DNA of 64,000 bases from Naegleria gruberi (lineage: Eukaryota): NCBI GenBank assembly GCA_000004985.1, contig GG738845.1, one strand, 5' to 3'. Position 1 is the first letter of the stretch. Each line of letters opens with the position of its first letter. Below the pieces are notes generated by a model. It saw nothing but the letters and a program-made list of their open reading frames with translations, searched no databases and had not been told where the DNA came from. Positions 1-53,471 of this stretch are shown here, in pieces. Made by a program: the position numbers and the translations under genes.

Positions 1-274
1 CCAACCCAAACCCAAACCCAAACCCAAACCCAAACCCAAACCCAACCCAAACCCAAACCCAAACCCAAACCCAAAACCCAAACCCAAACCCAAACCCAAA
101 CCCAAACCCAAACCCAAACCCAAACCCAAACCCAAACCCAACCCAAACCCAAACCCAAACCCAAACCCAAACCCAAACCCAAACCCAAACCCAAACCCAA
201 ACCCAAACCCAAACCCAAACCCAAACCCAAACCCAAACCCAAACCCAAACCCAACCCAACCCAACCCAACCCGT
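1..274. repeat. Terminal telomeric array (CCCAAA)n with occasional CCCAA units; C-rich strand on + strand means left chromosome end (G-strand repeat TTTGGG)
   Basis: About 45 tandem hexamers starting at base 1 and ending abruptly at 274; the same unit recurs at 4096-4360. Confidence 0.9.
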
Positions 275-545
275 AACTTTACCATATACCTTTAATCACT
301 CTATTATACATCTGGTATCAATTTCATACAGTTAGAATTGAATTCAGTATGATAATAATAACAATCTTTCAAAATGACATATTTCAATAAAAAGATTACA
401 CTCCATCTCAGTCAGTTTACAAAATATCATACTAGTATCAAATATGAATAGACTCCTCTTGATGAGGAGTACAATCTGAGAAAGTTTCAAATTCATGGCT
501 CAGTATCTTCAAGTCAACTAAGTAACCTTAGAATAGACAAGTCAA
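275..545. repeat. Partial copy of subtelomeric module Y (5' 270 bp), directly abutting the telomere
   Basis: cgtaactttaccatatacc...ggctcagtatcttcaagtcaactaag aligns with the starts of the Y copies at 1538 and 7806 and with 9546-9790. Confidence 0.7.
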
Positions 546-936
546 TTAAGTACATCAATTCAACAATTGAAAATTGAAATATAGTATATTTATTACAAAT
601 TAATAGGACTCTTCTAAATAACTATATCGTTTAAATTAATATTTGTAAAGTTGTCAACACATCATGTCACAGATCATACTCTTTCTCAATGAATAGTTGA
701 CTAAATCAATTTAAAATGACATATAGTTGTTTATACATAGTATTGTATATGTGGTATCAATATCTTTTAAAATTGTCAAGTATTAAGGAAGATCTAAAAA
801 AATAAGGTGGTAAAATTGAATAAGTTAGTAAAATGACCTTGAATCGATCACTCGTCCCTTAATTGACATTCCAACATACAACCACTGAACCAACAGTGTT
901 ATAGCATTATTATCTAGAAATAATTCATACGAATAA

Positions 937-986
937 NNNNNNNNNNNNNNNNNNNNNNNNNNNNNNNNNNNNNNNNNNNNNNNNNN
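937..986. other. Assembly gap (N run, 50 nt)
   Basis: Run of n. Confidence 0.95.
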
Positions 987-1537
987 CTCTTCTTGACCTA
1001 ATTTGGTCAATTAAGACAATTAAGGATGACACTATAGGAAAAGTTACCAATCTCAAAATAAATGATAATATCGAGTTCCACATCTCAAATAAGGTGGACT
1101 TTCATCAAATTATATAATTTCATTTCAAGAAATACATCCGTTAGATAGTACATGGTGATATTTCAAGGGAATGGCTGGAAATCTGAAAGATATAGAAACA
1201 ACTCCATTTTCACTGAAATTGATACCATGATATGTAGACACTCTAATTAGCATATAATATCAATTTCATGAGTATTGGCTCAGTAGATATTGAGTTGTCA
1301 ACTCTATCATTTTACTATAGAACTTTGACATAAAATCAAAGATTATGCTCCAACTCACTTATTTTATATGCAATTAGTCTAGAACTGATAACACACATTC
1401 TGTACACCATGTATATACATCTATACAAGTTTAAAAACAATTCATGATACTTTAATTCAGTCAATCAGTAAATGTTCAATGTCAATAGTGATTATATCCA
1501 AGTGTACACTCTATCTCAGCGAAAGTACATTCAACCA
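987..1537. repeat. Subtelomeric module X (about 550 bp), copy 1
   Basis: Near-identical to 9020-9545; 5' part matches 5440-5610; 3' part matches 7425-7805 and 2400-2649. Confidence 0.8.
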
Positions 1538-2259
1538 TCATGTAACTTTACCAGATACATTTAGTCACACTATTATACAACTGGAATCAATTTTAATGTT
1601 TTAGAATTGAATTCAATATGATAATAATAACAATCTGTCAAATTGTCATATTTCAACATATAGAATATACTCCATCTCATTTATTTTTCAAAATATCATA
1701 CAAGTATCAAATATGAATACACTCTCCTAGATGAGGAGAACAATCTGAGAAAGTTTCACATTCATGGCTCAGTATCTTAAATTCCACTAACTTACCTTAG
1801 AAGAAGTTTACGTTCCATATCAGTCATTTCATAGAGTTATTGATCAATTCCAACACCAGTATGTTATTCATCCGTTCTAGTACAATTTATGTTTCAAGAG
1901 TGATTTCTGTGATAAAGTTGATGGAAGTGAGTGCCAAATGGCACTTTCACTTCCAATATAGTAGTAAGCTTTGTTAATCCTTTCGATTCTGAGCCATTTT
2001 CACATCAACTTGAATCTATTTTTAACTTTTCCGCGCGTTTGGCGGTTTGATCAAGCGGCAAAAATAATTTTGATCAAGTGATTTTATTACCACTAGCCAC
2101 CATCATAACTTGATATATATAAATATTTAACAATTTCACATCAGCCGAATATTGTGCCCCATTACAATCACCATCTTTTGACATCATTTGTGATATATAT
2201 TGTTAATGTATTTAAGGAGAAAAGCTTAATAAATAGGGGTTGACATGGGATCCAACCCC
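1538..2259. repeat. Subtelomeric module Y (about 722 bp), copy 1; contains a near-perfect palindrome (1920-1952) and a GC clamp with two TTGATCAAG repeats (2030-2085)
   Basis: About 95% identical to 7806-8526, from catgtaactttaccagatac to ggggttgacatgggatcc. Confidence 0.85.
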
Positions 2260-2399
2260 TTGAGTGAGGAATTGCTGATTATCTCAATAATTAGATAAGA
2301 AACTATACACAATCTATAGCCCACTGGATAGCTGAGATTGTAACCTATTTAATGATGTATATCATTGATTATGTATTTCAGTAATAATAAAGATCCAAT

Positions 2400-2649
2400 G
2401 AGTACGAAACCTAGATATTTGACATGATATCATAGATTATACTCCAACTCACTCATTTTACATATAATAAGTCTAGAATTGATACCACATAGTCTATATA
2501 TCAATTAAATACATCTACAATAGTTTAGAAACATTTCAAACTATTTTCATAAAATTAATCAGTAAATGTTCAATGTCAACACTTAATATATCTTAGTGAA
2601 CACTCCATCTCAATGAAAGTACATCCAATCATCCTATAACTTTACCAGA
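2400..2649. repeat. 3' half of module X, truncated by a gap
   Basis: Matches 9330-9545 and 1330-1537 (…gtcaatagtg/acacttaatat…catcctataactttaccaga). Confidence 0.7.
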
Positions 2650-2699
2650 NNNNNNNNNNNNNNNNNNNNNNNNNNNNNNNNNNNNNNNNNNNNNNNNNN
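2650..2699. other. Assembly gap
   Basis: N run. Confidence 0.95.
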
Positions 2700-4045
2700 T
2701 TCCTTATAATTGTGAAGTAAGAAAAGTTCAGTAAGAATGTAAAAATTTTAATTTGTTGTATAGTATAATACAGTCTTGTCAAAAGGTTGGATACGTCACT
2801 CTTTCGAAAAGAAGCAACGGGTTTGAGCCACTCCACGTTCATTTGAAACAGTTTCAAACAGTTTTTACATCGGGTTGGATAACAACCATTGTTTTAAAGA
2901 TTACAGTTGTGAAAAAATGGCAAATCTCAATCATTTTTGAGAATTTAAGTATACTGTAAAAGACTGTCACCATTTCCATCGAGTTTTGAACATTTTCCAA
3001 TCACTTGTAAAAAATTCTTAATAATTGTGAAATACTCAAAGTTCACTAAGATAGAAATATTTCATAAACTTATAGTTCCTTATTGTAAGGAATTGTCAAA
3101 AGGTCTGAAATCCACTTTCATGAATATAATCAACGGGTTTGAGCCAATCCACGTTCATTTGAAACAATTTCAAGTGGTTTTTACATCGGGTTGGATGACA
3201 ACCACTGTTTTAAAGATTACAGTTGTGAAAAAATGGAAAATCTCAATCATTTTTGAGATTTTGAGTACACTCCAATGGAATGTTACTATCTACATACAGT
3301 TTAGAACATTTTCCATCTACTTGAAAAAATTCCTTAATAATTTTGAAATATTCAAAGTTCAGTAAGATTGCAAACAATTTACTTTGTTGAATAGTATATT
3401 CCAGCCTCATCACATTGCTCGATCAGGAACTTTTTTGAAAAGAAGCAACGGGTTTGAGCCACTTCACGTTCATTTGAAACAATTTCAATTTGTTCCACAA
3501 GCGGGTTGGATGACAATCACTGTTTTAAAGATTACAGTTGTGAAAAATCGATCAATCTCAATCATTTCTTAGAATTTAAGTATACTCCAATGGAAAAATC
3601 GATCAATCTCAATCATTTCTTAGAATTTAAGTATACTCCAATGGAATGTTACCATATACATACAGTTTTGAACATTTTCCAACCACTTGTAAAACTTCCT
3701 TAATAATTGTGAAGTAAGAAAAGTTCAGTAAGAATATAAAAATTTTAATTTGTTGTATAGTATAATACAGTCTCATTCAAAAGGTTGGATAAGTCTCTTT
3801 TTTGAAAAGAAGCAACGGGTTTGAGCAACTCCAAGCTCATTTGAAACATTTAATAGTAGTTGGTACATCGGGTTGGATAACAACCACTGTTTTAAAGATT
3901 ACAGTTGTGAAAAATCGACCAATCTCAATCATTTTTGAGAATTTAAGTGTACTGTAAAGGACTGGTACCATTTCTATCGATTTTGGAACATTTTCCATCT
4001 ACTTGAAAAAATTCCTTACTATGTGAAATATTCAAAGTTCAGTAA
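2700..4045. repeat. Tandem satellite, about 330-bp unit x4, telomere-associated; conserved core aagaagcaacgggtttgagccactccacgttcatttgaaaca…catcgggttggat(a/g)acaacca(c/t)tgttttaaagattacagttgtgaaaaa
   Basis: Four head-to-tail units starting near 2700, 3020, 3350 and 3700; the ORF track shows the same peptide (RSNGFEPLHVHLKQFQ…VLKITVVKK) repeated in 4 ORFs, which is a repeat artefact. Confidence 0.85.
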
Positions 4046-4095
4046 NNNNNNNNNNNNNNNNNNNNNNNNNNNNNNNNNNNNNNNNNNNNNNNNNN
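4046..4095. other. Assembly gap
   Basis: N run. Confidence 0.95.
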
Positions 4096-4360
4096 CAAAC
4101 CCAAACCCAAACCCAAACCCAAACCCAAACCCAAACCCAAACCCAAACCCAAACCCAAACCCAAACCCAAACCCAAACCCAAACCCAAACCCAAACCCAA
4201 ACCCAAACCCAAACCCAAACCCAAACCCAAACCCAAACCCAAACCCAAACCCAAACCCAAACCCAAACCCAACCAAAACCCAAACCCAAACCCAAACCCA
4301 AACCCAAACCCAAACCCAAACCCAAACCCAAACCCAAACCCAAACCCAAACCCAAACCCA
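4096..4360. repeat. Interstitial (internal) telomeric tract (CCCAAA)n, same orientation as the terminal array; degenerate telomere-like remnants continue to about 4400
   Basis: About 44 hexamers with one cccaaccaaaaccc variant; followed by aaacccaacgtttaaaccctagcccaaaa. Confidence 0.9.
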
Positions 4361-4689
4361 ATTCTAAAAATAGAATTCTTCTAAACCCAACGTTTAAACC
4401 CTAGCCCAAAATTATAAACTTCTTCATATATCATTAAATTTTATATCATTCGATAGGAAATTATGAGTAGAACAACGTAGTATATTTAGTTTTACAATTT
4501 ATAAAATATTAACTTTGTAAATAATGTCAGATTAAAATTTGTAAAAAGAAACTATAGGAAGAATGTTAATTTCAAAATCCTTTAATGAGATTATATAGTA
4601 TATATCATCATTAACAACATTCATAATCACTTTGATATAAAATTTCAAAGGTTCAAGTCTGTAGGTATAAAAGTATCGAATGAAAAGGG

Positions 4690-5340
4690 AAGATGTAAGG
4701 TAAAAGAGGTCAACTATAACTTTTGAGTTTCTCATCAAAACATATTGAAACCTGACATGAAAATGTCCCATTTGATGATTAAACATCGAACATCAAATTT
4801 ATTTTAACTTTCATATTTAAAGATTTCTTCCCTCAACCATCACGGTCAACTATGATGAAAAGGATGAACTCTTGAAAAAGGACCACCTATTGAAACTTTA
4901 CCAAAATGATGTACATGATCTATAATGATGTAGAATTCAATTTCATATCATAAAAATCAGAAATGGTATCATGGGAAGGTAAATGTTGATATTTTATGGT
5001 TGACTTTAGAGAAAGACAAGTCAGATCAACTCTATCAAATACATCACTTCAATCAACAAAATATATATGAAAATGCTCCATTCGATGAGTAGAGATAGAA
5101 AATAAAGTTTATTTTCACTTTCATGTTCATGATTTCAACTCTAACATACCAACTTGTCAACTGTGAACATGGATGAAAATCTGGAAAATGACCACTCTAT
5201 GCAACTTCACCACCATGTTCAACATCTCAAATAATGTATATGATTCAGTTTTTAGACGTTTTAGTGAACATTCCATCATTCACTAAGGTAAAGGGTGAAA
5301 TATCAGGGTTGACTTGGTAAGTTAAGGAGGAACTCTTCAA
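4690..5340. repeat. Diverged tandem duplication (module W, two units of about 320 bp, about 75% identical); second copy of the 3' portion at 8527-9000
   Basis: ccacctattgaaactttaccaaaatgatgtacatgatctataatgat… at 4870 and 8527; unit 1 and unit 2 share …gaaaatg(t/c)(c/t)ccatt(t/c)gatga…. Confidence 0.7.
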
Positions 5341-5439
5341 ATAGAGAACTTCATCCTCAATCTACAAAATACATATCAATCGGTTGGAAATCAATAGTAC
5401 ATCTCGTAAATATCATTTATTTTATGTTTTGAAATCTCT

Positions 5440-5610
5440 CCATGACCTCTTTAGGTCAATTAAGACAATTAAGGATGATACAATAGGAAAAATTACTAAT
5501 CTCAAAATAAATGATAATATCGTGTTCTACATCTCAAATAAAGTGAACTTTCATCAAATTATATATTTTCATTTCAAGAAATGCATCCAGTGGATAGTAC
5601 ATGGTGATTG
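5440..5610. repeat. 5' part of module X, truncated by a gap
   Basis: Matches 987-1150 and 9020-9180. Confidence 0.75.
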
Positions 5611-5660
5611 NNNNNNNNNNNNNNNNNNNNNNNNNNNNNNNNNNNNNNNNNNNNNNNNNN
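5611..5660. other. Assembly gap
   Basis: N run. Confidence 0.95.
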
Positions 5661-6975
5661 ATATGAATACACTCCTCTTGATAAGGAGAACAATCTGATA
5701 AAGTTTCACATTGATGGCTCAGTATCTTCAAGTCAACTAAGGAACATATAAGGAAATTAATTAGGAAGAATCTTAATTTCAAAATTAAATTTTACCATCA
5801 TATCAAAATCATTGAATAATGAATTATTGATACAAGAATCATATGTTCAATTGTTATATTCATGTCAATAATCAGTGAAGGTACCATTTCATCAACCTTA
5901 GTGTTCACATCTCAATACAGTAAATGTGACTTAAACTTGAAATACAACCTATTTAGATGATATAATGATGATTCTACATAGTAACATGCATGTGAAATTG
6001 AATGTTGACACTTTTCATATTGTTATATTTATAGAGATGGTATCCAACAGTCAGTTCACAATATTAAATATTGAAACTCATTCTGTATGGTATATTTGGT
6101 GTATAGAGTGGTTTTTTATTGATTATAATCAGTTTGAAATAATTTGATGAAATTGACACTGTCTAGTCACCATTACATAACAAATAGACCATAGTTTACA
6201 TTCCCTCTAAGTCATTTCAACGATTTATTGATTAATTCCAACACCAGTATGTTTTTCATACATTGTAGTACAGTTTATATTTCAAGAGTGATTTCTGTGA
6301 AGATTATTATAATCGTAATAGCATGCAATACCAATAAAACTCAATAGAAGAGTTAATTCTTCTCATTTTCAAATAGATTATTCAATATAGAACACATCTA
6401 GATAGTTTCCAGATCATAAAAGTCAAGCTACTATATATGGTCTTTGATTAAATTTAAAAATAGACTGCCGTTAATTACTGGAATATTAATTCAAAGCTTG
6501 TTGATCAAGCTGTTGATTGAAATCAAACCGATTATTGAATATTGATCATTGAATTGGAGAATAATCACTCTTGATAATGTTAGTTATTCATATTGCATGC
6601 AAATCAACCTGATTCAATCTACAAAGGTTGGTAGTTGCACCACTTCGTGGCGAAACTACCCATCCACGATCAATCAACAGTTGATTCACTTTCATTCAAC
6701 TCAATTTGACCGTTATAATCAATAAATCAATGAAATGTTTCTTTATTAGCAATACCTGTTCAATCCAATGCGTGGCTTCACGTCCCAAACATTTGACTTC
6801 TCAAAGTCCATAATTCAAAAGTTAGTACTGACCTGACCTTTAAATATCTGTCAATACAAGAAATGAAAACATCAAAATTACATCATTAATAGATTATAAG
6901 AAATATAATCAATGATATAAATCTTCACTAAGTAATCTCTTAATTAACCCAAATAAATCAACTCTGAATCCCCTT
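5661..6975. repeat. Subtelomeric module Z (about 1.3 kb), copy 1; contains hairpin GGTAGTT-GCACCAC-TTC-GTGGCG-AAACTACC (6632-6662) and a T-element at its 3' end (6775-6975)
   Basis: Collinear, about 90% identical to 9700-11035. Confidence 0.85.
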
Positions 6976-7267
6976 ATTTCCTTATTCTCAAGTAGTTTCA
7001 TCTCTAGAAGAATCATGGCTCTCCACAGTGGTGGACTTTCCTCCGTAAACATCTCTTGTTCTCCTGATAACTTTTTTGATAACTATTACCAACACGTCTA
7101 TTTGCCAAATTTTCAGTTCATGACCAAACATTGATAGAAATGGAATACGAACAATTTGTAAAAAATAAATAAATCTAAATACTCACAGGTTGTAGACCTA
7201 GCCAATCGTCTCCAAAAATTATTTGATGAATTTGATGATGGTGATGGTGACAAAAGTTTACAAAAAA

Positions 7268-7374
7268 ATGACATCACAACCTATCACCGCACCTCTTGAT
7301 CAACTTCCCGATGAGTTGTTACTTTATATTGTTACCTTCTCCACCACAATCCTATTGACATCATTAAATTCTCC
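7268..7374 (+). pseudogene. N-terminal fragment of an F-box protein (MTSQPITAPLDQLPDELLLYIVTFSTTILL…), truncated by a scaffold gap; embedded in subtelomeric repeats
   Basis: aaaaaaATG context; LPDELLLYIV matches the F-box consensus LPxEIL..I; local GC higher than surrounding repeats. Confidence 0.4.
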
Positions 7375-7424
7375 NNNNNNNNNNNNNNNNNNNNNNNNNN
7401 NNNNNNNNNNNNNNNNNNNNNNNN
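7375..7424. other. Assembly gap
   Basis: N run. Confidence 0.95.
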
Positions 7425-7805
7425 ATTGTCAAGGAGAATGGATGGAAATCTGAAGGGACCAGAAACAACTCCATTTTCACTGAAATTAATACCATGATAT
7501 GTAGACACTCTAATTAGCATATGATATCAATTTCATTAATATTGGTTCAGTAGATATTGAGTTGTCAACTCTATCATTTTACTATAGACCTTTGACATAA
7601 AATCAAAGATTATGCTCCAACTCGCTCATTTTATATGAAGTTAGTCTAGAATTGATAACACATATTATATACATCATTTATATACATCTACATACGTTTT
7701 GAAACAATTCATGAAACTTACATTCAGTCAATCAGTAAATGTTCAATGTCAAGAGTGATTATATTCAAGTGTACGCTCTATCTCAGCGAAAGTACATCCA
7801 ACCAT
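7425..7805. repeat. Module X (3' 380 bp), copy
   Basis: Matches 1158-1537. Confidence 0.8.
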
Positions 7806-8526
7806 CATGTAACTTTACTAGATACATTTAATCACACTGATATACATCTGGAATCAATTTTAATGTTTTAGAATTGAATTCAGTATGATAATAATAACAA
7901 TCTGTCAAATTGTCACATTTCAACATATAGAATATACTCCATCTCATTCATTTTACAAAATATAATACAAGTATCAAATATGAATACACTCCTCTTGATA
8001 AGGAGAACAATCTGATAAAGTTTCACATTGATGGCTCAGTATCTTACAGTCAACCAATATACCTTAGAATATAGTTTACATTCCATCTCAGTCATTTCAA
8101 AGAGTTATTGATCAATTCCAACACCAATATGTTACTCACACATTATAGTACAATTCATGTTTCAAGAGTGATTTCTATGATAAAGTTGATGGAAGTGAGT
8201 GCCAAATGGCACTTTCACTTCCAATATAGTAGTAAGCTTTGTTAATCCTTTCGATTCTGAGCCATTTTCACATCAACTTGAATCTATTTTTAACTTTTCC
8301 GCGCGTTTTTCGGTTTGATCAACCGGCAAAAATAATTTTGATCAAGTGATTTTATTACCACTAGCCACCATCATAACTTGATATATATAAATATTTAACA
8401 ATTTCACATCAGCCGTATATTGTGCCCCATTACCATCACCATCTTTTGACATCATTTGTGATATATATTGTTAATGTATTTAAGGAGAAAAGCTTAATAA
8501 ATAGGGGTTGACATGGGATCCAAACC
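7806..8526. repeat. Module Y, copy 2 (palindrome at 8187-8219)
   Basis: About 95% identity to 1538-2259. Confidence 0.85.
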
Positions 8527-9000
8527 CACCTATTAAAACTTTACCAAAATGATGTACATGATCTATAATGATATAGAATTCAATTTCATGTCCTAAAAAT
8601 CAGAAATGGTATCATGAGAAGGTAAATGTTGATATTTTATGGTTGACTTAAAGGAAAGACAAGTCAGACCAACTCTATCAAATACATCACTTCAACCAAC
8701 AATATATACATGAAAATGCTTCACTCTACGAGTAGAGATAGAAAATCAAGTTTATTTTCACTTTCATGTTCATGATTTCAACTCTATCATACCAACTAGT
8801 CAACTGTGTACATGGATGAAAATCTGGAAAATGACCACTCTATGAAACATTACCATCATGTTCAACATCTCAAATACTGTATATGGTTCAAATTTCAGAC
8901 ATTTTGGTGAATATTCTATCTTTCAGTAAGGTAAAGGGTGAAATATCAAGGTTGACTTGGAAGCAGTAGGAAATCTTGAATATAGAGAACCAAATCCTCA
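8527..9000. repeat. Module W copy (matches 4870-5340)
   Basis: Alignment by eye, about 90% identity. Confidence 0.7.
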
Positions 9001-9019
9001 ATCAACAAAATACACAATT

Positions 9020-9545
9020 AAGATAATAAGGATGATACCATAGGAAAAATTACCAATCTCAAAATAAATGATAATATCGTGTTCCACATCTCAAATAAAG
9101 TGGACTTTCATCAAATTATATATTTTCATTTCAAGAAATGCATTCAGTAGATAGTACATGGGGATATTTCAAGAGAATGGATGAAATCTGAAAGGTACAG
9201 AAACAACTCCATTTTCACTGAAATTGATATCATGATATGTAGACACTTTAATTAGCATATGGTATCAATTTCATAAATATTGGTTCAGTAGATGTCGAGA
9301 TGTCAACTCTATCACTATACTATAGAACTTTGACATGATATCATAGATTATGCTCCAACTCGCTCATTATACGTACAATTAATCTAGAGTTGATACCAGA
9401 TAGAGTATACATCAATTAAGTACACTGTATACAGTTTGGAAACAATTCGTATTACTTTCAAAGAGTGAGTCAGTTAATGTTCAATGTCAATAGTGAATAT
9501 ATCCAAGTGTACACTCTATCTCAGTGAAAGTATATCCAACCATCA
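9020..9545. repeat. Module X, full copy 2
   Basis: Matches 987-1537. Confidence 0.8.
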
Positions 9546-11035
9546 TGTAACTTTACCAGATATGTTTAATCACACTATTGTATATATGGTATCAATTTTA
9601 GTCTGTTGGAATTGAATTCAGTATGATAATAATAACAATCTGTCAAATTGTCACATTTCAACATATAGAATATATACCATCTCAGTCAGTTTACAAAATA
9701 TAATACAAGTATCAAATATGAATACACTTCCCTTCATGAGGAGAACAATCTGAGAAAGTTTCATATTCATGGCTCAATACCTTCAAGTCAACTAAGGAAC
9801 ATCTAAGGTAATCAATGGGGAAGTATCTTAATTTCAAAATTAAATTTTACCATCATATCATAATCATTGAACAATGAATTATTTATGCAACAATAATATA
9901 TTCAATTGTCATATTCATGTCAGTAATCAGTGAAGGTGACACTTCTTCAACCTTAGTATACACATCTCAATATGTAGACTGTCAATTCCACTGAAACTTG
10001 AAATATTACCTATCTAGATGATATAATGATGACTCTCCATTGTAACATGCATGTGAAATTGAATGTTGACACTTTTCATCTTGTTATATTTATAGAGTTG
10101 GTATCCAACAGAGTCAGTTCACAATATTAAATATTGAAACTTATTCTATATGACATGTTTGATGTATGGAACGGGTTTTTATTGATTGTAATCAGTTTGA
10201 AATAATTTGATGAAATTGACACTGTCTAGTCACCATTACATGACAAATAGACCATAGTTTACATTCCATCTCAGTCATTTTAACGAGTTATTGATTAATT
10301 CCACCATTATGTTTCTCATACATTGTAGTACAGTTTATATTTCAAGAGTGATTTCTGTGTAGATTATTATAATCGTAATAGCATGCAATACCAATAAAAC
10401 TCAATAGAAGAGTTAATTCATCTCATTTTCAAATAGATTATTCAATATAGAACACATCTAGATAGTTTCCATATCATAAAAGTCAAGCTACTATATATGG
10501 TCTTTGATTAAATTTAAAAATAGACTGCCATTGATTACTGGAATATTCAAAGCTTGATGAGCAAGCTATTGATTGAAATCAAACCGATTATTGAATATTG
10601 ATCATTGAATTGGTGAATAATCACTCTTGATAATGCTATATTTCAGATTGCATGCAAATCAACCTGATTCAATCTACAAAGGATGGTAGTTGCACCACTT
10701 CGTGGCGAAACTACCTGAATCAACATCAGATTCACTTCCATTCAACTCAATTTGACCGTTATAATCAATAAATCAATGAAATGTTCCTTTATTAGCAATA
10801 CCTATTCAATCTTACGAGTAGATTCACGTCCCAAACATTTGACTTCTCAAAGTCCATATTTCAAAAGTTGATACTGACCTGACCTTTATATATCTATCAA
10901 TATAAGAAATGAAAACATCAAATTTACATCATTAATAGATCGTAAGAAATATAATCAATGATATGAATCTTCACTAAGTAATCTCTTAAATAACCCAAAT
11001 AAATCAACTCTGAATCCTAACCAAACCCAACCCTT
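9546..11035. repeat. Module Y 5' part (9546-9790) fused to module Z copy 2 (9790-11035), ending in a T-element
   Basis: Collinear with 275-545 plus 5661-6975; hairpin copy at 10683-10713. Confidence 0.8.
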
Positions 11036-11263
11036 CAATCTAATGAGTAGATTCACGTCCCAAACATTTGACTTCTTAAAGTCCATAATTCAAAAGTTGA
11101 TACTGACCTGACCTTTATATATCTATCAATACAAGAAATGAAAACATCAAATTTACATCATTGATAGATTATAAGAAATATAATCAATGATATAAATCTT
11201 CACTAAGTAATCTCTTAAATAACCCAAATAAATCAACTCTGAATCCTAACAAAACCTTAAATA
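10808..11263. repeat. Telomere-proximal T-element (about 230 bp) in tandem duplicate (10808-11033, 11034-11263); unit ends in degenerate telomeric …ctgaatcctaaccaaacccaaccc
   Basis: gattcacgtcccaaacatttgacttct…aaataaatcaactctgaatcc repeated twice; also at 6775-6975 and 17385-17495. Confidence 0.8.
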
Positions 11264-11331
11264 ACCAAAAAAAATCAACTCGGAGTCATAATCTTTGAAT
11301 TAAAATTTGAAGAGCAGTATAACAATTTTAT

Positions 11332-14300
11332 TTAAATACTCAACAATTCCTTCTCATTAAGCTTGTTGGAATTACCAGGAGTTTCTTTGCGTTTCTTAGT
11401 AAAGACGAAAACAGCACCAACAATGACAGCAATCACTGCCACCAAAGGAATAATCAAAAGTAATAAAGCAAGATAGTTCATGTTAGGTTTAGGAACAACA
11501 ATAGGTGGAGGAATAACAGTATCACCAGAAGTAGAAGTAGGTGGTTGAGGTTTTGTTGTTTCAGCTTCAGCAACAACATAGGAACCAGAGTCTCTGATTT
11601 GGATTGTTACAAATGTGGAATCATTACTAACAAGTGTACAAGTTGGTGTAATCACATAATCTTCATTTTTCAAGGTATAACATGCTATTTCATTAGTCAA
11701 AACAGATCTGGTTTGAGAAATCTTTTCAATCTTGATTGAAGCAATGGTTACATTTTCATTCAAGAAGGACATTATATTATTGTTTACAACAATACCAAAA
11801 TCAACAACCTTACTGATTGATTTGAGTGTTGAATTCTTCAATGTGTAAATCTTGTTGACTAATTTGACACTTTCTAAACTTTCCAAAATTTTCATTGAAC
11901 TGAATACATCCTTCATTTCAAAACGAGAGACACCATTTTGAGAGATATCTTCAGATAATGTACCAAGAGTCGAAATACTGACAAGTCTTGCATATGTAGT
12001 GGTACCAACTCCAGAGCTTCTAACAGCAGGCATGTCAGCCACTGCACTCTTGAGTTCAACACTTACAAGATTTGCTTTGATTTGGTCAATCTTGTTCAAA
12101 TCTTGAATAGTAAATGTTGAAATGGCTCTCTTGGATACGGAACTAGAAACATATTCTTCTAGCGATGATGCAGACTTCTTAGAGTTTTCAATATCATCAG
12201 GTTTCATGCTAATAGTTTCAGAGGAAGAAACACCCATAACCGTTGTAAAGAATTGATCAATAATCTTTGAAACAGTATCATCTGGGAAGTTTCGAACATT
12301 ATCACTCACTGATGAAATAATTGAAACCTTAGTTGATGCTGATTCTGATGATTCTGAAACAATTTGACTTTGTTGATCTTCTTGTTCAAAGAATTTATCA
12401 ATGAAAGCTTTACCAGCTTGTTGTAAAGCAAGTTTTTCTTCAGCACTAGCTGGAGTAACAGATGACACAACACTAAGAACGGCCGATAAAGAAGAAACAG
12501 AAATAGAACCTTTTTGTGCAGTTTCTAAAAGTCCAAGAGCTTGTCCAGATGATGGAAGTGATGTTGTCACTTCACTAATAGTTTCAGAAGCAGCACCCAA
12601 GGAATCATAAACCACAACCTTAATTTGCAAGTTACCAGCAGGCAAAGAAGTAGCAATAGATCTCTTTTCAGATCTTTCAGAAAGAACCTTCCAAATAGTT
12701 GCATCAGAAGTCTTGTACATGAATTTGTAAGAAAGTGGAAGTTGAGTATCGTACCAACCATTACCACACTTGATTTGGAATTCATCTTGTAAAGCAATGC
12801 CAGATTTTGGATAAACTTCTAAAATACCAATTGTTGGTGGTGAGTTTACAGTGAAAGTAAATGTTGCGTCACCAGATCTCAAACCATCAACAACCTTAAC
12901 ATTGATAGAATAAGTGGCTCCAGGAACAAGTAAACTCTTTGGTATGTTAATGTACTTGTTAGATGTTGAAATGGAGCTCAATTCTAAATCAGTTGATGAC
13001 CAAGTAAATACTCTAGATGTTGAAAGTGTATCAGCTGATGATGATTGTAAAATCAAGTCACTAGATGGATCCATAGATGTGGAATCAGAACCAACTGGTG
13101 CAATAATTGAAACTCTTATAACACTGCTCTTTGGTTGATCAAGAACAGTAACCTTAACAGTTGCTGAGCTTCTTCTGGATCCTTTGGTGAAAATAGTAGT
13201 GAACAAATAAACACCAGGAAGCATGGAGCTCTTAAATGACAAGAATGTTTGATCAATATTATTTTCATTGGATTTGAATCCTGAACAGTCAACTCCTGTA
13301 TCAATATTGGAACACAATAATTGGACATTACCTGAAGCATCTGACGGATTACTTGGATCATTCTTGTTGACAACGAATGAAACATCTGTTTCAAAGGACT
13401 GAGACATGTCACGTATATTAAATCCTACTACCAAAGGTAATGCTTTGGCAGATACTGTAAATGGAATTGAAACAGAGGCAGCTCCAGTTTGAGAAACAGT
13501 CAAAGTTAAATAATATTCACCAGGTTCTGTAATCTTGGTGTAAGTATCGCTGAAAACAAGCATTTCCTTCATTTGAAGGATAGGAACAGTTATGGTTGTT
13601 TTGGAATCCCAACTGTATACATAAGAAATTTCACCACTTCCGATATAACATGATGGGAATGTTACAAGAGGAGTTATTGTTGAAGTCTTACCAATAACTA
13701 GTGTACTTTGAAGACCTTCCTTAATGGTTACAGTTGGAGCTGTCAAGTCAGTGACTTCAAAAGAAGCAAAAGCAACAGTTGACCTTTGAGAGAAAGTACT
13801 TGAAACAGTAACTTTGACTGAATAAGAACCAACACTCAAATCTTTAGCACTAATCTTTACACCAGATATATCTTGTTGTTGATCAAGAATTTTTTGTAAG
13901 GTTGAAACGTCATCAGCTGAAGGAGATATTTCAACAGCCCAAATAAATTTCAATGCTCTACGGTCCTTGGAAATAGATCCAGATGCATCCAAATAAATTG
14001 AACCACAAGCTTTAGAAATAATAGACTTATCAGCAGTCAAAGTTGCTGTTGGTGGTATTGGCACAAAATCTTTTGTTTCTACGGTAACTGCTACAGTTTC
14101 TGGTGATGAGAAATACTTCTTGAATATTAATTTGTCATTGACCTTAATAGATGCAGATGGACCAATAGAGATTGTCATAGTCATGGTTTCACTATTAATT
14201 AAACAACCAGCACCTTCTCCAATTGAGCTCACATCAGTAATCAATTCTGAACAAGTAAACTTCTTTTTAAGTGATGAGTAAACGACACCAGAAATAGAAT

Positions 14301-16982
14301 CGCCATTTTGAGAGAAACCAAAAGAGTTTTGATCAATCTTAAAGTCACATTTTTCACCATACCAACCCTCAACACACTTTTCACAGTTTGCACCCATTGA
14401 GTTTCCAATACAAGTACAAGAACCATCAGAATTACATGTACCTCTACTGGAACAATTTTGAGCAGAAGTACATTGAACTTGACAATTGCTTCCAACAAAT
14501 CCTTCTTTACAATTTCTACAATATTCACCAACCCAATTACCAGTGCAAGAACACTTGAAATCTGATGTACAAACACCATGACCGTTACATGTTCCTTCAT
14601 CAGAACAAATTCTACCAGTACAATTGACTCCACTATAAGCAAGTGTACAAACTGAACAGAATTTGGATGGCTCATAATTTCCTTTACAAACACAAGTGTC
14701 AACTGAAACACAAGAACCAACTCCTGAGCAAACATCTCTATTACTTCTATCAATACCATTACATTTGAAGTTTTGACACAAGTCTCCATCATAACCTTCG
14801 GAACATTTACAAGTTGGAACACCTTCAATAGAAACACATGAGCCTCTACCTCCACAAACTCCCTTATCACTTGCCTTAATACCATTACAGATAGGAACGT
14901 CACATTTAGAACCTGTAAAACCTTCCTTACATGATGAACATGATGAACCAGCAAAATTATTCTTACAATAACATCCACTTGATGTACATGTTCCTTGGAA
15001 AGAACAACCTCCCTCGCTCTCTTGTTTACCATTACAAATTGGAATGTTACAACTGCTTCCAGTAAAACCAGTCTTACATTTACAATTATTGACTCCTACA
15101 CAATCACCATTTCCATTACAAACACTTGATGAATTTCCATCAATACCAAAACATAAATTGAATTGACAATTCAAGCCAGAAAATCCAGTCCGACAAGAAC
15201 ATGAATTTTCATCCATGCAAAGTCCTTTACCAGAACAAACAGCTGCATCAGTATAGAGTTTACCATAGCAACTAGTTGAAGGTGGTAAGTATTTACCATA
15301 GAAACATTCACTTTCAGGTTTTCCTTCACAATTACTTGTTGAGGTTGAGTTTACAATACCGTTAGTCCAAATGAAAGCACAAGTGTTCTTACAAAGTGAT
15401 TTTTCGTATGGAGTGGATTTATCGGAAAAGCAAGGTTTGATATCTTGATAACAAATATAGTTAGCAATAGCTTTACGACAAGTGTCATCACAAGTTTTTC
15501 CACCATTAATAATAGTGTCAATCATTGATTGAGCTTTCTTTTCTGCCTCACTATCAATACTCTTCAATAAGTTAGTAATTTCTGTTAAAGCAGATTGTGG
15601 ACTAGAATAATGTGCTGTTGGGGAAAAGGCGGTATTCAGTACCTTGTAGTAAACACTTGATTTACAATAAGTTAATGAACCACTTGGAACCTCAATACAT
15701 TGAGTTGGTGGAGTATAAACTGAACAGTCTTCTCCAGAATATCCACTTTCACACACACGTAAACAAATTCCATTGCTATTCTTTGAGTAACTTGATGCAC
15801 ATTCAGAGCATGGTGATTGAGCATTTGTTGTTACGTATTCAGTGAAACATTTACATTGTGTGGCATCAGATGTAGCAACATTAATAAATTCACAAACTCC
15901 CTTACCACAACCATTTACACATACAGGAACTTTAGCTACACATGTACCCTCGATATTCTCAAATCCAAGTTTACAGACACAGTTGCTTCCCTCTTTGATA
16001 AAACCTAAAGATTCACTGCAAGCGCAGGCACTACCAGTATTATTAAATCCACTCAAAGTATCACAAATACAATCAGAGCCACTTGAAATATAACCAGAAG
16101 CTACATCACAGACACATGTAGATCCTTTTAGAACAGATCCAATTGGACATGAAGAACATGGTAGTGATGCAACTTTAGTCTCAAAACCATTCTTACAAAC
16201 ACAATCTGAAGTTGTTGCAGTAATAAATTCACAAACACCATTGGAACCACAATCATATTGACATTTTGGAGCATTTGTTTGGACACAAGTTCCATTGGAT
16301 GAAGTAACTAATCCAGCTGATTCATCACAAACACATTTGCCATTTGATTCAACATATCCTAAAATATCATTACAAGAACTACATGGACCTGATTGAGATT
16401 TGTATCCTAAATCACAATCACAAAAAGTAACTGATGATTCATCATCACTATATTTACAAACGCCATTGCCACATCCATTATTACAAACAGGCTGACTACG
16501 AACACATTTGTTATTTTGGAATGCATAGTTGGCACTTTCATCACAAATACAAATGGCACTTCCTGTGGTATTAACACAAGCTCCACGAGGATTACAATCA
16601 AGAGTACATGGGTTTGAAGGGGTGTTGTTTTCATTATCACACAATTTTCCACTATATCCTAAATTACAAATACATTCAGCAATACCAGTTGCATTTTCAC
16701 ATTTACCATGAACACATGATAATGTACATGGATTAGTAAAGTTGGAATTACCATTATTGGAATCAAAATTTTGACATAATTCTCCACTATATCCAGGTTC
16801 ACATGTACATTTAGCAATACCATTTGTATTGTCGCATTTACCATGTACACATGATAATTTGCATGAATTGGTAACATTTACAATATTGCTACAGTTCCAT
16901 CCAATAGGATTGCAGAATTGACCTGCAGTACAATCAGAATCTGAGTAACATTCGTATCTACAAATAGAAACAGGGAGAACCA
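11332..16982 (-). CDS. Giant type-I membrane glycoprotein, 3'-terminal exon (stop at 11332): N-terminal array of EGF/laminin-EGF-like Cys repeats, central run of PKD/REJ-like Ig-fold repeats, Ser/Thr-rich stalk, single C-terminal TM (LALLLLIIPLVAVIAVIVGAVFVF) and short basic tail. 5' exon(s) with signal peptide lost in gap 17000-17049
   Basis: Open frame continues upstream of the ORF-track start (16644 is a TTG) to a pyrimidine-rich acceptor …ttctatttgtag at about 16960-16972; about 60 Cys repeats CxCxxG(F/Y)xGxxC. Confidence 0.8.
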
Positions 16983-16999
16983 GTTACAAGTGAAAATGA

Positions 17000-17049: not shown

Positions 17050-17384
17050 TCCATATCAAATCATCAGACAAGTTGGCATACTCGATACCTATGGGATTGG
17101 GATTGAGCCTGGGCCTACTAAGTTTCGGCCATTTCTCTTATTTGACATTTGCTCCAGCAACCTCTATATTTATGACCCTGTTTATTTCAACATTGAAAAG
17201 AGAGAAAAAGGAAGCAATTTTGCTAAAGTGCTATTAAAAATTTAAATAATAACATGCATCACGATTACAATTATATCTGTGGCTAATCTTGTAAATAAAT
17301 GGTAAAAATATTTTACTGCCCTAGTAGAGACAAGTGGACAATTTTCTTTACATTAATCCATCAGTTCCAGTTGATACGACCTGA

Positions 17385-17495
17385 CCTTTAAATATCTATC
17401 AAATTTACATCATTAATAGATCATAAAAATACAATCAATGATAATCAATCTTCACAAAGTAATAACCAAAAAAGTCAACTCGAACCAAACCTTTT
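17385..17495. repeat. Displaced short copy of the subtelomeric T-element, lying between the surface-protein gene and actin
   Basis: cctgacctttaaatatctatcaaatttacatcattaatagatc…aatcttcac(a/t)aagtaat…aatcaactc…aaccaaacc matches 10860-11035. Confidence 0.65.
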
Positions 17496-17693: not shown

Positions 17694-18711
17694 TTAGAAA
17701 CACTTTCTGTGAACGATACCTGGACCGGCATCCTCATATTCTTCCTTTGTGATCCACATTTGTTGGAAAGTGGACAATGAAGCCAAGATGGAACCACCAA
17801 TCCAGACAGAGTACTTTCTTTCTGGTGGAGCAACAACCTTAATCTTCATTGAGGCAGGAGCCATAGCAGTCAATTCCTTGGTCATTCTTTCAGCAATACC
17901 TTCGAACATAGTAGTACCACCAGACAAGACAACGTTACCATACAAATCCTTTCTGATATCAATATCACATTTACCAATTGAATTGAAAGTAGTTTCATGA
18001 ACACCAGCAGCTTCCATACCAATGAAGTTTGGTTGGAACAAAACTTCTGGACATCTGAATCTTTCGTTACCAACAGTAATAACATTACCGTCTGGCAATT
18101 CGTATGACTTTTCAACAGATGATGATTCAGCAGCAACCTTCATTTCAGCTTCAAAGTCCAAAGCAATATAACAGAGCTTTTCCTTAATATCTCTGACAAT
18201 TTCTCTTTCAGCAGTAGTATTGAATGAGTAACCTCTTTCCATCAAAATCTTCATCAAATAATCAGTCAAGTCACGACCAGCCAAATCCAATCTCAAAATG
18301 GCGTGTGGCAAAGCATAACCTTCATAAATTGGAACAGTGTGAGAAACACCATCACCAGAGTCCAAAACAATACCAGTAGTTCTACCAGAAGCATACAAGG
18401 ACAAGACAGCTTGAATAGCAACATACATAGCTGGAACTGAGAAAGTTTCAAACATAATTTGGGTCATCTTTTCTCTATTGGCCTTTGGATTCAAAGGAGC
18501 TTCAGTCAACAAGACTGGGTGTTCTTCTGGAGCAACTCTCAATTCATTGTAGAAAGTGTGATGCCAGATCTTTTCCATATCATCCCAATTGGTAACAATA
18601 CCGTGTTCAATTGGATACTTCAAAGTTAAGATACCTCTCTTTGATTGAGCTTCATCACCAACATAGGCATCCTTGTTACCCATACCAACCATGATTGATT
18701 TTTGCTTTGGT
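17694..18711 (-). CDS. ACT: Actin, partial (residues about 38-375); N-terminus lost in gap 18712-18761
   Basis: [84 protein letters not shown]…IVHRKCF; over 85% identical to canonical actins. Confidence 0.95.
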
Positions 18712-18761
18712 NNNNNNNNNNNNNNNNNNNNNNNNNNNNNNNNNNNNNNNNNNNNNNNNNN
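18712..18761. other. Assembly gap
   Basis: N run. Confidence 0.95.
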
Positions 18762-19589
18762 AAACAAAGCTTTGAGTTTGAAATAATGTATAAAAGTATT
18801 TTCATTACGTTTTGTTATGTAATAAATATTTCAAAAATATTGGCAATAACCAGCCATAACGATTCTGTTGATTCACATATTAACTCCAAGAATTTCACCA
18901 CATCATCTCATCATTTAAATAGTATTGTATAGTAAGGGTGAATTTAATCCTTCAGCACGATTTGGAAATAATTTTATTATTTGGAAAAATTCAAGTTGGT
19001 ACATCATCATCGGAACAACTACCAACCATCATCATTGTTATTTATCATCATTAATAGTAATATATAAATCTGATAATAGTAATATTTTAGTGAAATTTAA
19101 TATTTTCACTAAAATCATCATTACTGCCAGATTCATATGGTAATTTGGAAAACTTTCAATCATAAGTATTGTAGTCTGTGGTCCATCAAGGTAAAATCAC
19201 TTCCGAACATTTTCCTATTGTTTCATGAACATTAATAAACTATTAGTATATCAATTATATCGTTATACTTGGTTGAAATCATTTGGGACTGTCCGTTAAT
19301 GTAGATCAAACATGATAAAACAATTGAAAATTGTTGTGTTGAGTTGTTGTGAATCAAGGTTGAAAATAAGCAAGATTTCCGACCTTGAAATTTACCATTA
19401 GTTACTTTTATTGGTGGTGTGATTCATTTACATCAATGATATGATGTTATTAATGATACTATGTTGTTGAAATTCACTCATCATGATGAAAATATAGGGT
19501 GAATGATGAATACTACACCAACAAGATGACTATTATTCGGAGTTGTTGTATACTGATAATATGCTATTAAAATTAAATTGTAATATTTA

Positions 19590-50948: not shown

Positions 50949-50995
50949 GTAAGTTTTTGTAAAACAATTAAGGTGTAACGTTCTTTTACGAAAAG

Positions 50996-53471
50996 TTTTT
51001 TGACAGTAGTATTGGAATTTGACAAACATCCTTCATTGGTTATTTTTAATGATACTCTTGTGATTTGGAATGGTATTTTCAGTAATCCAAAACTTCCTTT
51101 TTGTAATGCACCATTTTTGGCAAAATATTTTGAACCTCTTCTCCAAGTAACCAGATTAAAAATAACAAAAGAAATTGGTAATCCAGACGTGGAAAGATTC
51201 GAAAGTAATCTAACACATCAATTGTGTTTAATAGATTTCGAAGATAAAAAGGAATACTATCAACTTCATGGCTCTATGAGAAGTCAAGCAAGATCGCTTG
51301 TACAACACATCACACATAGAGTACCTTTTGATTCTGTTAAATTTGCAACTCTTCAAGTAACAGAGGCATTAAAGACAAACGCTCCAAATCCAAAAGATGA
51401 CAAGGGACCTAATGGATACTGCAGTGTTTTTAGTGATGCTTATCTTTTATGGGAATCTTCAACTACATTTTATGAGTGGGTAATTGAAAGTGTTAGTAAT
51501 GATAAAGCATCTGGTGATGAAAGAATAATTGAAGCTGAAATGTACTTGCTTGATATTTGCCTCAAATTTAGTACTGATGATCCACTTATTCAAACTGTAT
51601 TTGTTAGACTTTTCAAATCTTTCTCTCATCTCAATAGAAGAAATAAGAATTCATTGATGGCAATCGCTGAAAATTTATTCAAACAAATGCAATTTAGACC
51701 AAGTAAGGAGGTTGGAAAAGCTGTTGAGGACCTCACAGAAGATACATCTTCAGCTAGACAAAAGGCTCACACAACTTTCATTTCACTTTGTCAATCCAAT
51801 GCTAAAGATCTTCCTCAATTCTTAAAAGAGTTTGTTAATTTAGCAGAACAACTCTGGTCAAAGAAAGAAATTTTAAGTAACGAACTCATTTTAATGTATG
51901 AAGCCTTTGTAGTTATTAGTAATGAGTGGAAAGATTTTAATCAACAAAAGCAATTTTTAGATTATTTATTGAGTCCACTTATTAACGAACTCAACTCTAA
52001 TTTATATAAGGAAGTTATGAATTCAGTACCACTACTTTACCAAGCATGTGGAATTTTAAACGAAGAAAATCAAGAAAAGAAGGCAAAATTAGAAGATATC
52101 AAGAGTAGAATATTCCATATACTAACAACAATAACAAGTTTGGCAGACAGAATGCCTGAAAATCCTCAGGATATGGGTATGGTAGATCCTTTGTCTAAAC
52201 AAGTTAAATATCCAATTTCAACCTTCATTTTAGAAGTTTTACCAAATATTCTTGGATTGGTAAGAACCATTCATATGTGCTACACAGTAGAAGGTCAAAA
52301 TCTAGTTCCTCAACAAGTAAGAAAATACATTTTACATATTGGTATTGATGAACAATACATGGCTCGTGGAGATGCTTTTGTACAGTCAAAGGTTTCATCT
52401 GAGCAATACACAATTCATAGAATCCATTATTACTTGACAAATTTAAGAAGATTGTGCTATCTATTAATAGGACAAGCTTGTAAATATTGTGATAAGGAAT
52501 TGTTTTGGGCTAATCCATCTTTATTCCAAATGTTAACAGATTCTGTGTTTTCTTTTATTGAATTTATTGGTATTAGAGACCTATCATTGATGATGTTAAA
52601 CTTTTTCCAAAACTTTTTCGAAAATATTCCAGAAGAATTACACAACACTTTACTTTTGAATATTTTGAAACCTCTCCTTTCACTTTTGGCATCAAGAATT
52701 GAAACAGCACAAGCAGAAATTTGTGATAAGGCTGGACAAACAATAGGAGATGAAGGAGTTCTTGATGAAATAGTTAAGGAAAAACACTTGAAAGAATTAT
52801 CTTCTGTTGTTGTAAATATTATTTTGAGAGCTACCAATTCAATTAGAATATCCAAAGATAATCTCAAACCAAAAGCAGATGTTATTTGTACGTTTATTAT
52901 TGGAAATAGTGATTTGGTAGGCTTGATTGTGATGCTTTTCTGTAAAATAATTGCTGTAATGTTAGATCCAACAAGTGTTGTGAAATGCGTAATGATTTGT
53001 GATAGAATTATTCGTTTTATGAGTAATAATCAATTAGGAGCCTATACTAATTTATTTGCTGGAGAGCTTTTCTACTCATTACTGAGATCTTTAATGACAA
53101 CAGTTGATGAACAATTGCAAGATTCTATCATTTCACTCACTACATTTATTTATGGTTGTTTTAGAAAAAAGACAAATACTATGCGAGACATTTTAACACA
53201 GGTACCAACTTTAACCCCTCAAAAGGTTAAACATTTTGATGATGCATTCGGAAAAGCTAATGATGAAAAGGATAAGAAAAAGAAAGTCAAGACTCTTTTA
53301 TCTACAATCTGTGGTATGCAAAAAGGTGCACCTTCAAAGTCAAAATCTCTCTTATCTTTAACAGGTACAAATCCAATTCAGCAACAAAGTAATGACAAGA
53401 AGAAGGGATCAAAGAAACCAACTTCATTCCTTGATAATGCCACAGTTGCTGAACTTCAAGGTTTATTTTAA
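50996..53471 (+). CDS. XPO5: Exportin-5-like, exon 5/5; C-terminus …QKVKHFDDAFGKANDEKDKKKKVKTLLSTICGMQKG… resembles the XPO5 tail
   Basis: Acceptor …acgaaaag at 50995; HEAT-repeat exportin architecture; exact exportin subtype (XPO5 versus exportin-T) is uncertain. Confidence 0.6.

Follow-up and report, generated by a model that had tools for sequence, protein, structure and literature searches.

The window analysed here, 64,000 nucleotides that form the start of a 1,555,553-bp scaffold of Naegleria gruberi, carries two telomere-repeat tracts in the same orientation, one at the very beginning of the scaffold (1–272) and a second that appears to lie inside it (4096–4361). We favour the reading, at a probability of about 0.68, that both tracts are true chromosome termini which were placed side by side by scaffolding. 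The second tract would then be the physical end of a chain of contigs (4096–5610, 5661–7374 and 7425 onward) that runs into the gene-bearing chromosome, and position 4096 probably marks where this chromosome arm really ends. It would look internal since the scaffolder set three short contigs, 1–936, 987–2649 and 2700–4045, before it across placeholder gaps. Contig 1–936 would itself be a second true terminus, and the two tracts are inferred never to share one DNA molecule. As a sequence feature the second tract is real and of a known kind, and it probably does not occupy an internal position in the cell.

The (CCCAAA)n array at 4096–4361 on the + strand forms the left end of the contig that we call c4. 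TRF describes it as a repeat of period 6 with 44.5 copies and 98% matches, and when its 266 bp are parsed unit by unit they give 45 units, 41 of them the canonical CCCAAA. Variant units are found at 4268 (CCCAA), 4273 (CCAAAA) and 4357 (CCCAA). Both TRF and the unit parse bear out an initial annotation of this DNA in its claim of a second telomeric tract, oriented like the terminal one and beside a 50-N gap; the start that it gave, 4096, is correct and the end, 4360, falls one base short. The string CCCAAACCC occurs 79 times in the window, each time within 1–272 or 4096–4361, and a 15-mer telomere scan of the window returned 83 matches against 0.07 expected. These counts, and the confinement of CCCAAACCC to the tracts, place the internal tract far beyond chance. 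Its unit is the telomere motif of the species, TTTGGG/CCCAAA, and by this motif the tract belongs with the N. gruberi telomere arrays. TTTGGG, which is present at scaffold termini, was proposed as the candidate telomere repeat of N. gruberi in an in-silico survey without experimental confirmation (Fulneckova et al. 2013, PMC3622300). The same survey reports that internal blocks accompany the terminal telomere arrays in most of the genome assemblies that have such arrays. The structure of the N. gruberi subtelomere is not described in the main text of that survey (PMC3622300), and a literature search found no description of Naegleria subtelomeres.

The orientation of the tract is that of the terminal tract, with the C-rich strand on the + strand and reading inward, and it fits a left chromosome end, where the 5' to 3' direction of the C-rich strand leads from the end towards the interior. 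The first base of the tract directly follows the 50-N gap at 4046–4095, and unique sequence adjoins it on the right side only; the array is terminal on its contig and internal in the scaffold. The transition from tract to flank at 4361/4362 (CCCAAACCCAATTCTAAAAATAG) is clean, with a variant unit and a nearby cluster of degenerate motifs. This cluster, AAACCCAACGTTTAAACCCTAGCCCAAA at 4383–4410 on the + strand (of the form AAACCCAA..AAACCC..CCCAAA), lies 22 bp inward of the tract. It is the convincing part of an earlier argument that degenerate telomere-like remnants record repeated telomere addition and erosion in this region. The argument as a whole is weak, and the telomere-like ends that had been assigned to the T elements, a 229-bp repeat family, come down to a single 15-mer at one copy. 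This 15-mer, AACCAAACCCAACCC, has its one occurrence outside the tracts at 11019–11033, in the spacer between two T copies; the other T copies lack it, and 17485 shows only AACCAAACC. We rejected the T-element remnants as evidence for this reason.

Could the tract have been made by a cloning or read-level chimera, or by an assembler error, with no telomere joined to 4362 onward in the genome? It does lie at a contig edge, where consensus quality is lowest. However, the clean transition with its variant unit and neighbouring motif cluster is as found at natural telomere junctions, the length and regularity of the tract match those of the terminal one, and c4 is otherwise consistent with its paralogue at 8526–9165. 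We regard an artefact of this sort as very improbable.

The terminal array (1–272, the C-strand (CCCAAA)n on the + strand at the scaffold start) parses into 46 units, 38 of which are canonical, with four CCCAA variants at its inner edge. The two tracts are thus close in length, 266 bp for the internal and 272 bp for the terminal one, and their variant maps differ, which argues that they are two independent tracts and not one set of reads used twice. Near-equal length, 98% regularity and a variant map of its own also mark the internal tract as a well-kept array rather than a decayed relic. Judged from its sequence, 4096–4361 is a genuine N. gruberi telomere array, the TTTGGG repeats of which would have been made by telomerase.

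Directly inside the terminal tract lies the 3' part of a copy of R (273–535, + strand), a repeat element of ~800 bp with its reference copy at 1008–1802. The cut matches position 1542 of this full copy. Homology of the junction to full R copies begins at GTAACTTTACC (230–340 compared with 1499–1609, 7766–7876 and 9504–9614), and the left ~550 bp of the R copy are replaced by telomere repeats. Truncation of R in the middle of the element is the signature of a break followed by the addition of a new telomere, in agreement with the earlier suggestion of telomere addition after breakage, and it argues that 1–936 is also a real end. The flanks just inside the two tracts are unrelated, 273–535 being part of R and 4362–4756 unique, with no similarity shared between them, so the tracts do not belong to a tandem telomere-plus-element unit.

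All seven gaps in the window are exactly 50 N long and all fall within its first 19 kb. The first 7.4 kb consist of five short contigs joined by such gaps, and each contig break in this stretch falls within either the ~800-bp R element or a satellite of ~315 bp. Contig c1 (1–936) carries the terminal tract. It is followed by c2 (987–2649, + strand), which holds a full R copy and a module S (93% identical to 7429–8527), 150 bp of unique sequence and part of a further R copy, which breaks off where the gap begins, and by c3 (2700–4045), which is pure satellite. Beyond the 50-N placeholder at 4046–4095, c4 (4096–5610, + strand) comprises the internal tract and a body (4362–5610) made up of unique sequence (4362–4756), a module U and the first part of an R copy, which ends ...GGTGATTG at the gap. 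Contig c5 (5661–7374, + strand) opens with 68 nt identical to 7978–8045 and continues with a module V and 400 bp of unique sequence, and c6 spans 7425–16999.

The gap sizes are placeholders. Judged from the paralogous copy in c6, ~548–550 bp of R are missing at the gap between c4 and c5 (5611–5660), the true content of which would be ~548 bp of an R copy identical to 7429–7977. The actin gene further inward (17694–18692, − strand) is interrupted by the gap at 18712–18761 and loses about the first 31 positions of its Pfam profile there, and the missing amino-terminus implies that this gap is longer than 50 bp unless an intron is present. At least two of the seven gaps, 5611–5660 and 18712–18761, therefore seemingly cannot have their true size. 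The initial annotation had put the second tract 3.8 kb inside the terminal one; since the spacing crosses three 50-N placeholders, this distance has no physical meaning.

In these respects the region resembles the false telomere joins of draft scaffolds, where a tract of end-type orientation sits at a gap, the gaps are uniform placeholders and the distal contigs are short and consist of repeats only. Here too the junction lies at a gap across which there is no sequence continuity, the gap sizes are placeholders, and the flanking contigs are bounded by repeats or unanchored. The likeness to a trivial false join is incomplete, as the paralogous modules are 7–14% diverged and mis-mapping of mates is not an obvious cause. 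Sanger reads normally tell apart sequences with 7–14% divergence, and simple misplacement of mates is for this reason not an easy explanation. Presumably the scaffolder had some read-pair links when it placed 1–4045 here.

The ends of the contigs point to the partner of the second tract. At its right, c4 stops (...GGTGATTG) at the same position of R at which c6 opens (ATTGTCAAGG...), and the end of c4 and the start of c6 (7425) share the four nucleotides ATTG, where other R copies read ATAT. We estimate the chance that two independent breaks fall within 2 nt of each other in the 800-bp R at below 1%. At the other side, the first 68 nt of c5 are identical to 7978–8045 in c6 and diverge thereafter, and an exact match of 60 nt elsewhere is reached by only ~3% of random positions in the region. 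The simplest reading of these ends is that an R segment of ~620 bp (7425–8045, + strand) would be present in at least two near-identical copies and was assembled once and used twice, as a collapsed repeat. Contig c4 would enter this segment at its left edge, through the ATTG overlap, and c5 would leave it at the right edge. The ATTG overlap between c4 and c6 and the 68-nt identity between c5 and c6 tie c4, with its telomere tract, to the gene-bearing side, a tie that assumes that contigs are cut where near-identical repeat copies diverge and that includes a short overlap of 4 nt. A comparable contig-end tie of 1–4045 to c4 was not found, the right end of c3 being satellite, and none of the contigs of the window runs into CCCAAA repeats at its right. 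Contig c2 ends on the right at 2649, 13 nt beyond the R coordinate at which the terminal telomere cuts; the 13-nt match of this end to other R copies is not significant, as 40% of random positions in the region do no worse.

Self-comparison shows the end region to be a mosaic of direct repeats with 86–93% identity, all copies being in direct orientation. Besides the reference copy, R is present in full or in part at 273–535, 2412–2649, 5436–5608 plus 5661–5745, 7429–8071 and 9015–9800. Module S occurs at 1805–2259 and 8073–8527, module U at 4757–5373 (also given as 4883–5373) and 8526–9014 with 90% identity, and module V at 5746–6971 and 9801–11017 with 90.5% identity. The T element occurs singly at 6759–6971, as a tandem pair at 10805–11256 and in part at 17370–17490. 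Repeated modules had been noted distal to the internal tract; they are there, but they lie on both sides of it and mostly on the centromere-proximal side. Metagenome scans with a 44-nt core of R gave no match. The non-coding subtelomere shows a GC skew of −0.13 to −0.15 in c1, c2, c5 and c6, with C exceeding G on the + strand, and across 273–11331 this skew and the telomere C-strand agree in sense. No skew is seen in the satellite (0.00) or in the gene-rich remainder of the window at 19000–64000 (−0.003).

The satellite in c3 consists of four units of ~315 bp plus 35 bp, with a mean column identity of 75%. A four-copy array at 2700–4045 had been reported before and is real, although its unit, given then as 330 bp, measures ~315 bp. 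Units 1 and 4 are ~88% identical, in a three-unit higher-order pattern, and unit 3 contains a 51-bp internal duplication at 3542–3646. The satellite is found once in the window, and c3, which has no unique anchor, touches neither telomere tract in contiguous sequence. The contig begins and ends in the same repeat register, which marks it as a collapsed array lacking a unique anchor. A satellite a few kilobases from telomere repeats recalls the Plasmodium TAREs, the Chlamydomonas Sultan elements and the subtelomeric satellites of potato (PMC3276127). Unlike in these systems, continuous sequence here links the satellite to neither tract, and the assembly contains only 4.3 units of it; a satellite array that ran through the gap into the tract would look identical in this assembly. 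The initial annotation had offered three alternatives without ranking them. The first, that 1–4045 is joined only by scaffolding, is the one favoured by our analysis. A regular telomere–satellite–telomere structure as the normal end in this organism is unsupported in this window, given that the satellite occurs once, the inner flanks of the tracts are unrelated and c3 is contiguous with neither tract.

We also observed that the invariant blocks of the satellite contain GGGTTTG and GGGTTGG. These motifs lie on the + strand in the sense of the telomere G-strand, opposite to both telomere tracts, and could be putative binding sites for telomere proteins or could be due to chance. Metagenome scans with a 27-mer of the satellite gave no match, and RNA genes were rejected as a reason for the satellite, which has no Rfam or tRNA matches.

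The remaining alternative is a genuine interstitial telomeric sequence, in which an old end is trapped in the same orientation under newer distal DNA. The tract and the sequence from 4362 onward would then have gained at least ~4 kb of distal DNA (R copies, module S and the satellite) with a telomere of its own, which could have come about by break-induced replication or by recombination with another end that started in the telomere repeats. The shared orientation of the tracts and the position of the second between blocks of subtelomeric repeats agree with this. The scaffold places 1–4045 here, which suggests read-pair links; the truncated R copy at the terminal tract indicates earlier breakage and healing of ends in this region; and the motif cluster at 4383–4410 shows a junction of some age.

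Tracts in such an arrangement are real in yeast and humans. In Saccharomyces cerevisiae, internal tracts of telomere repeats lie between Y' elements and between Y' and X. The tract studied here resembles them in having the orientation of the terminal tract and a place between subtelomeric repeat blocks, a likeness that here concerns the order of contigs in the scaffold. It differs in that the block distal to it does not copy the proximal one, which speaks against a trapped end, and in that its length and regularity equal those of the terminal tract. The same element does not follow each telomere tract, as it would in a Y'-type unit, and no long or helicase-like ORF of Y' type is present in 273–11331, where the longest stop-free run is 138 codons. 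In human subtelomeres, interstitial (TTAGGG)n occurs at the boundaries of duplicons and marks former ends, and the region here is likewise a mosaic of duplicated modules with 86–93% identity. Human interstitial tracts are usually short, degenerate and sequenced through on both sides, whereas the present tract has a gap on its left and consists of near-perfect repeats.

Several observations count against a trapped end. To the left the tract is flanked by a gap, so that non-telomeric DNA bounds it in continuous sequence on one side only. A contig that terminates in CCCAAA repeats is missing, though reads over the distal junction should have yielded one. Trapped telomere tracts usually shorten and decay, yet this one keeps 98% regularity and equals the live terminal tract in length. 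On balance we consider an interstitial tract unlikely, at odds of perhaps one in five by our own reckoning. To a similar degree we doubt the wider proposal that N. gruberi chromosome ends lengthen by taking over entire terminal blocks of other ends, with the captured junction keeping a full-length, near-perfect array. Were the tract internal, it would give the first described architecture of a heterolobosean subtelomere, the principle of which is already known from yeast and humans, and it would be unusually well preserved, perhaps through recombination or the binding of telomere proteins.

If both tracts are instead true termini, as we favour, the distal contigs would derive from a second end with the same subtelomeric modules, which may be another chromosome end or, in a longer version, this same end as carried by the other homologue. 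In an added variant of this scheme, two homologues, or two near-identical ends, would differ in length and would have been merged by the assembler. Naegleria is described as mainly diploid and heterozygous, and its karyotype varies between strains (PMC9928731). We count a difference between homologues within this favoured explanation and keep it apart from a further possibility, in which the end varies in length within the culture. In that case a short form, with its telomere at 4362, would coexist with a long form that continues into other sequence, either through terminal deletion and healing that occurred recently in some of the population, or through regulated alternative telomere addition, as in ciliate macronuclei. 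Such variation would suit a mainly heterozygous diploid with karyotype variation (PMC9928731), and the contig breaks at repeat forks fit two alternative paths. In the window, however, no contig right end overlaps the start of 4362–4375, which would be expected from a diverging long form. Nothing suggests programmed fragmentation in Naegleria, and we know of no report of it. We consider length variation in culture improbable, clearly more so than a trapped end.

For users of the assembly the region carries a quality flag, as the first ~7.4 kb of the scaffold are an unreliable chain of repeat contigs. The apparent internal telomere should not be counted as an interstitial site, nor used to infer chromosome fusions or healing. 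Nanopore reads and a Flye assembly exist for N. gruberi (PMC12695648).

The interval from 273 to 11331 is non-coding, each frame containing 243–285 stops in ~3,686 codons. Its longest ORFs have no Pfam match, and the end region gave no Rfam or tRNA matches. An ORF with an F-box-like start (LPDELLLYIV) at 7223–7374 on the + strand was dropped as evidence, having a Pfam E value of 0.16 and no homologue. Placed at the right-hand margin of c5, it continues into the gap at 7375–7424, where more than a few bases would be missing if the ORF is genuine. The first gene inward, at 11332–16983 on the − strand, encodes a membrane protein with REJ and EGF domains, for which the NCBI N. gruberi model is a 'basal body protein' of 1830 aa. 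T elements are found just downstream of this gene and close to the actin gene's 3' end. A 13.5-kb scaffold of N. gruberi, possibly a further chromosome end that has not been placed, carries a paralogue of the REJ/EGF protein with 50% identity.

The CCCAAA unit brought Paramecium to mind, but a ciliate origin was rejected. The window contains long ORFs under the standard code (1,883, 1,242 and 1,100 aa), and the ciliate code adds little; protein identity established the species as N. gruberi. An exportin-5-like ORF at 50979–53468 is 100% identical to an NCBI Naegleria gruberi protein, and an ORC6-like ORF is an exact match to EFC50612.1; exact look-ups returned the NCBI gene model only and no ORFs from other assemblies. 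Finally, a degenerate tandem repeat of 18 bp (and of 33/93 bp), with CTGGTTGTTCAATAGCAG units, occupies 27552–27782 in an ORF-dense part of the window, just after a cyclase-like gene.
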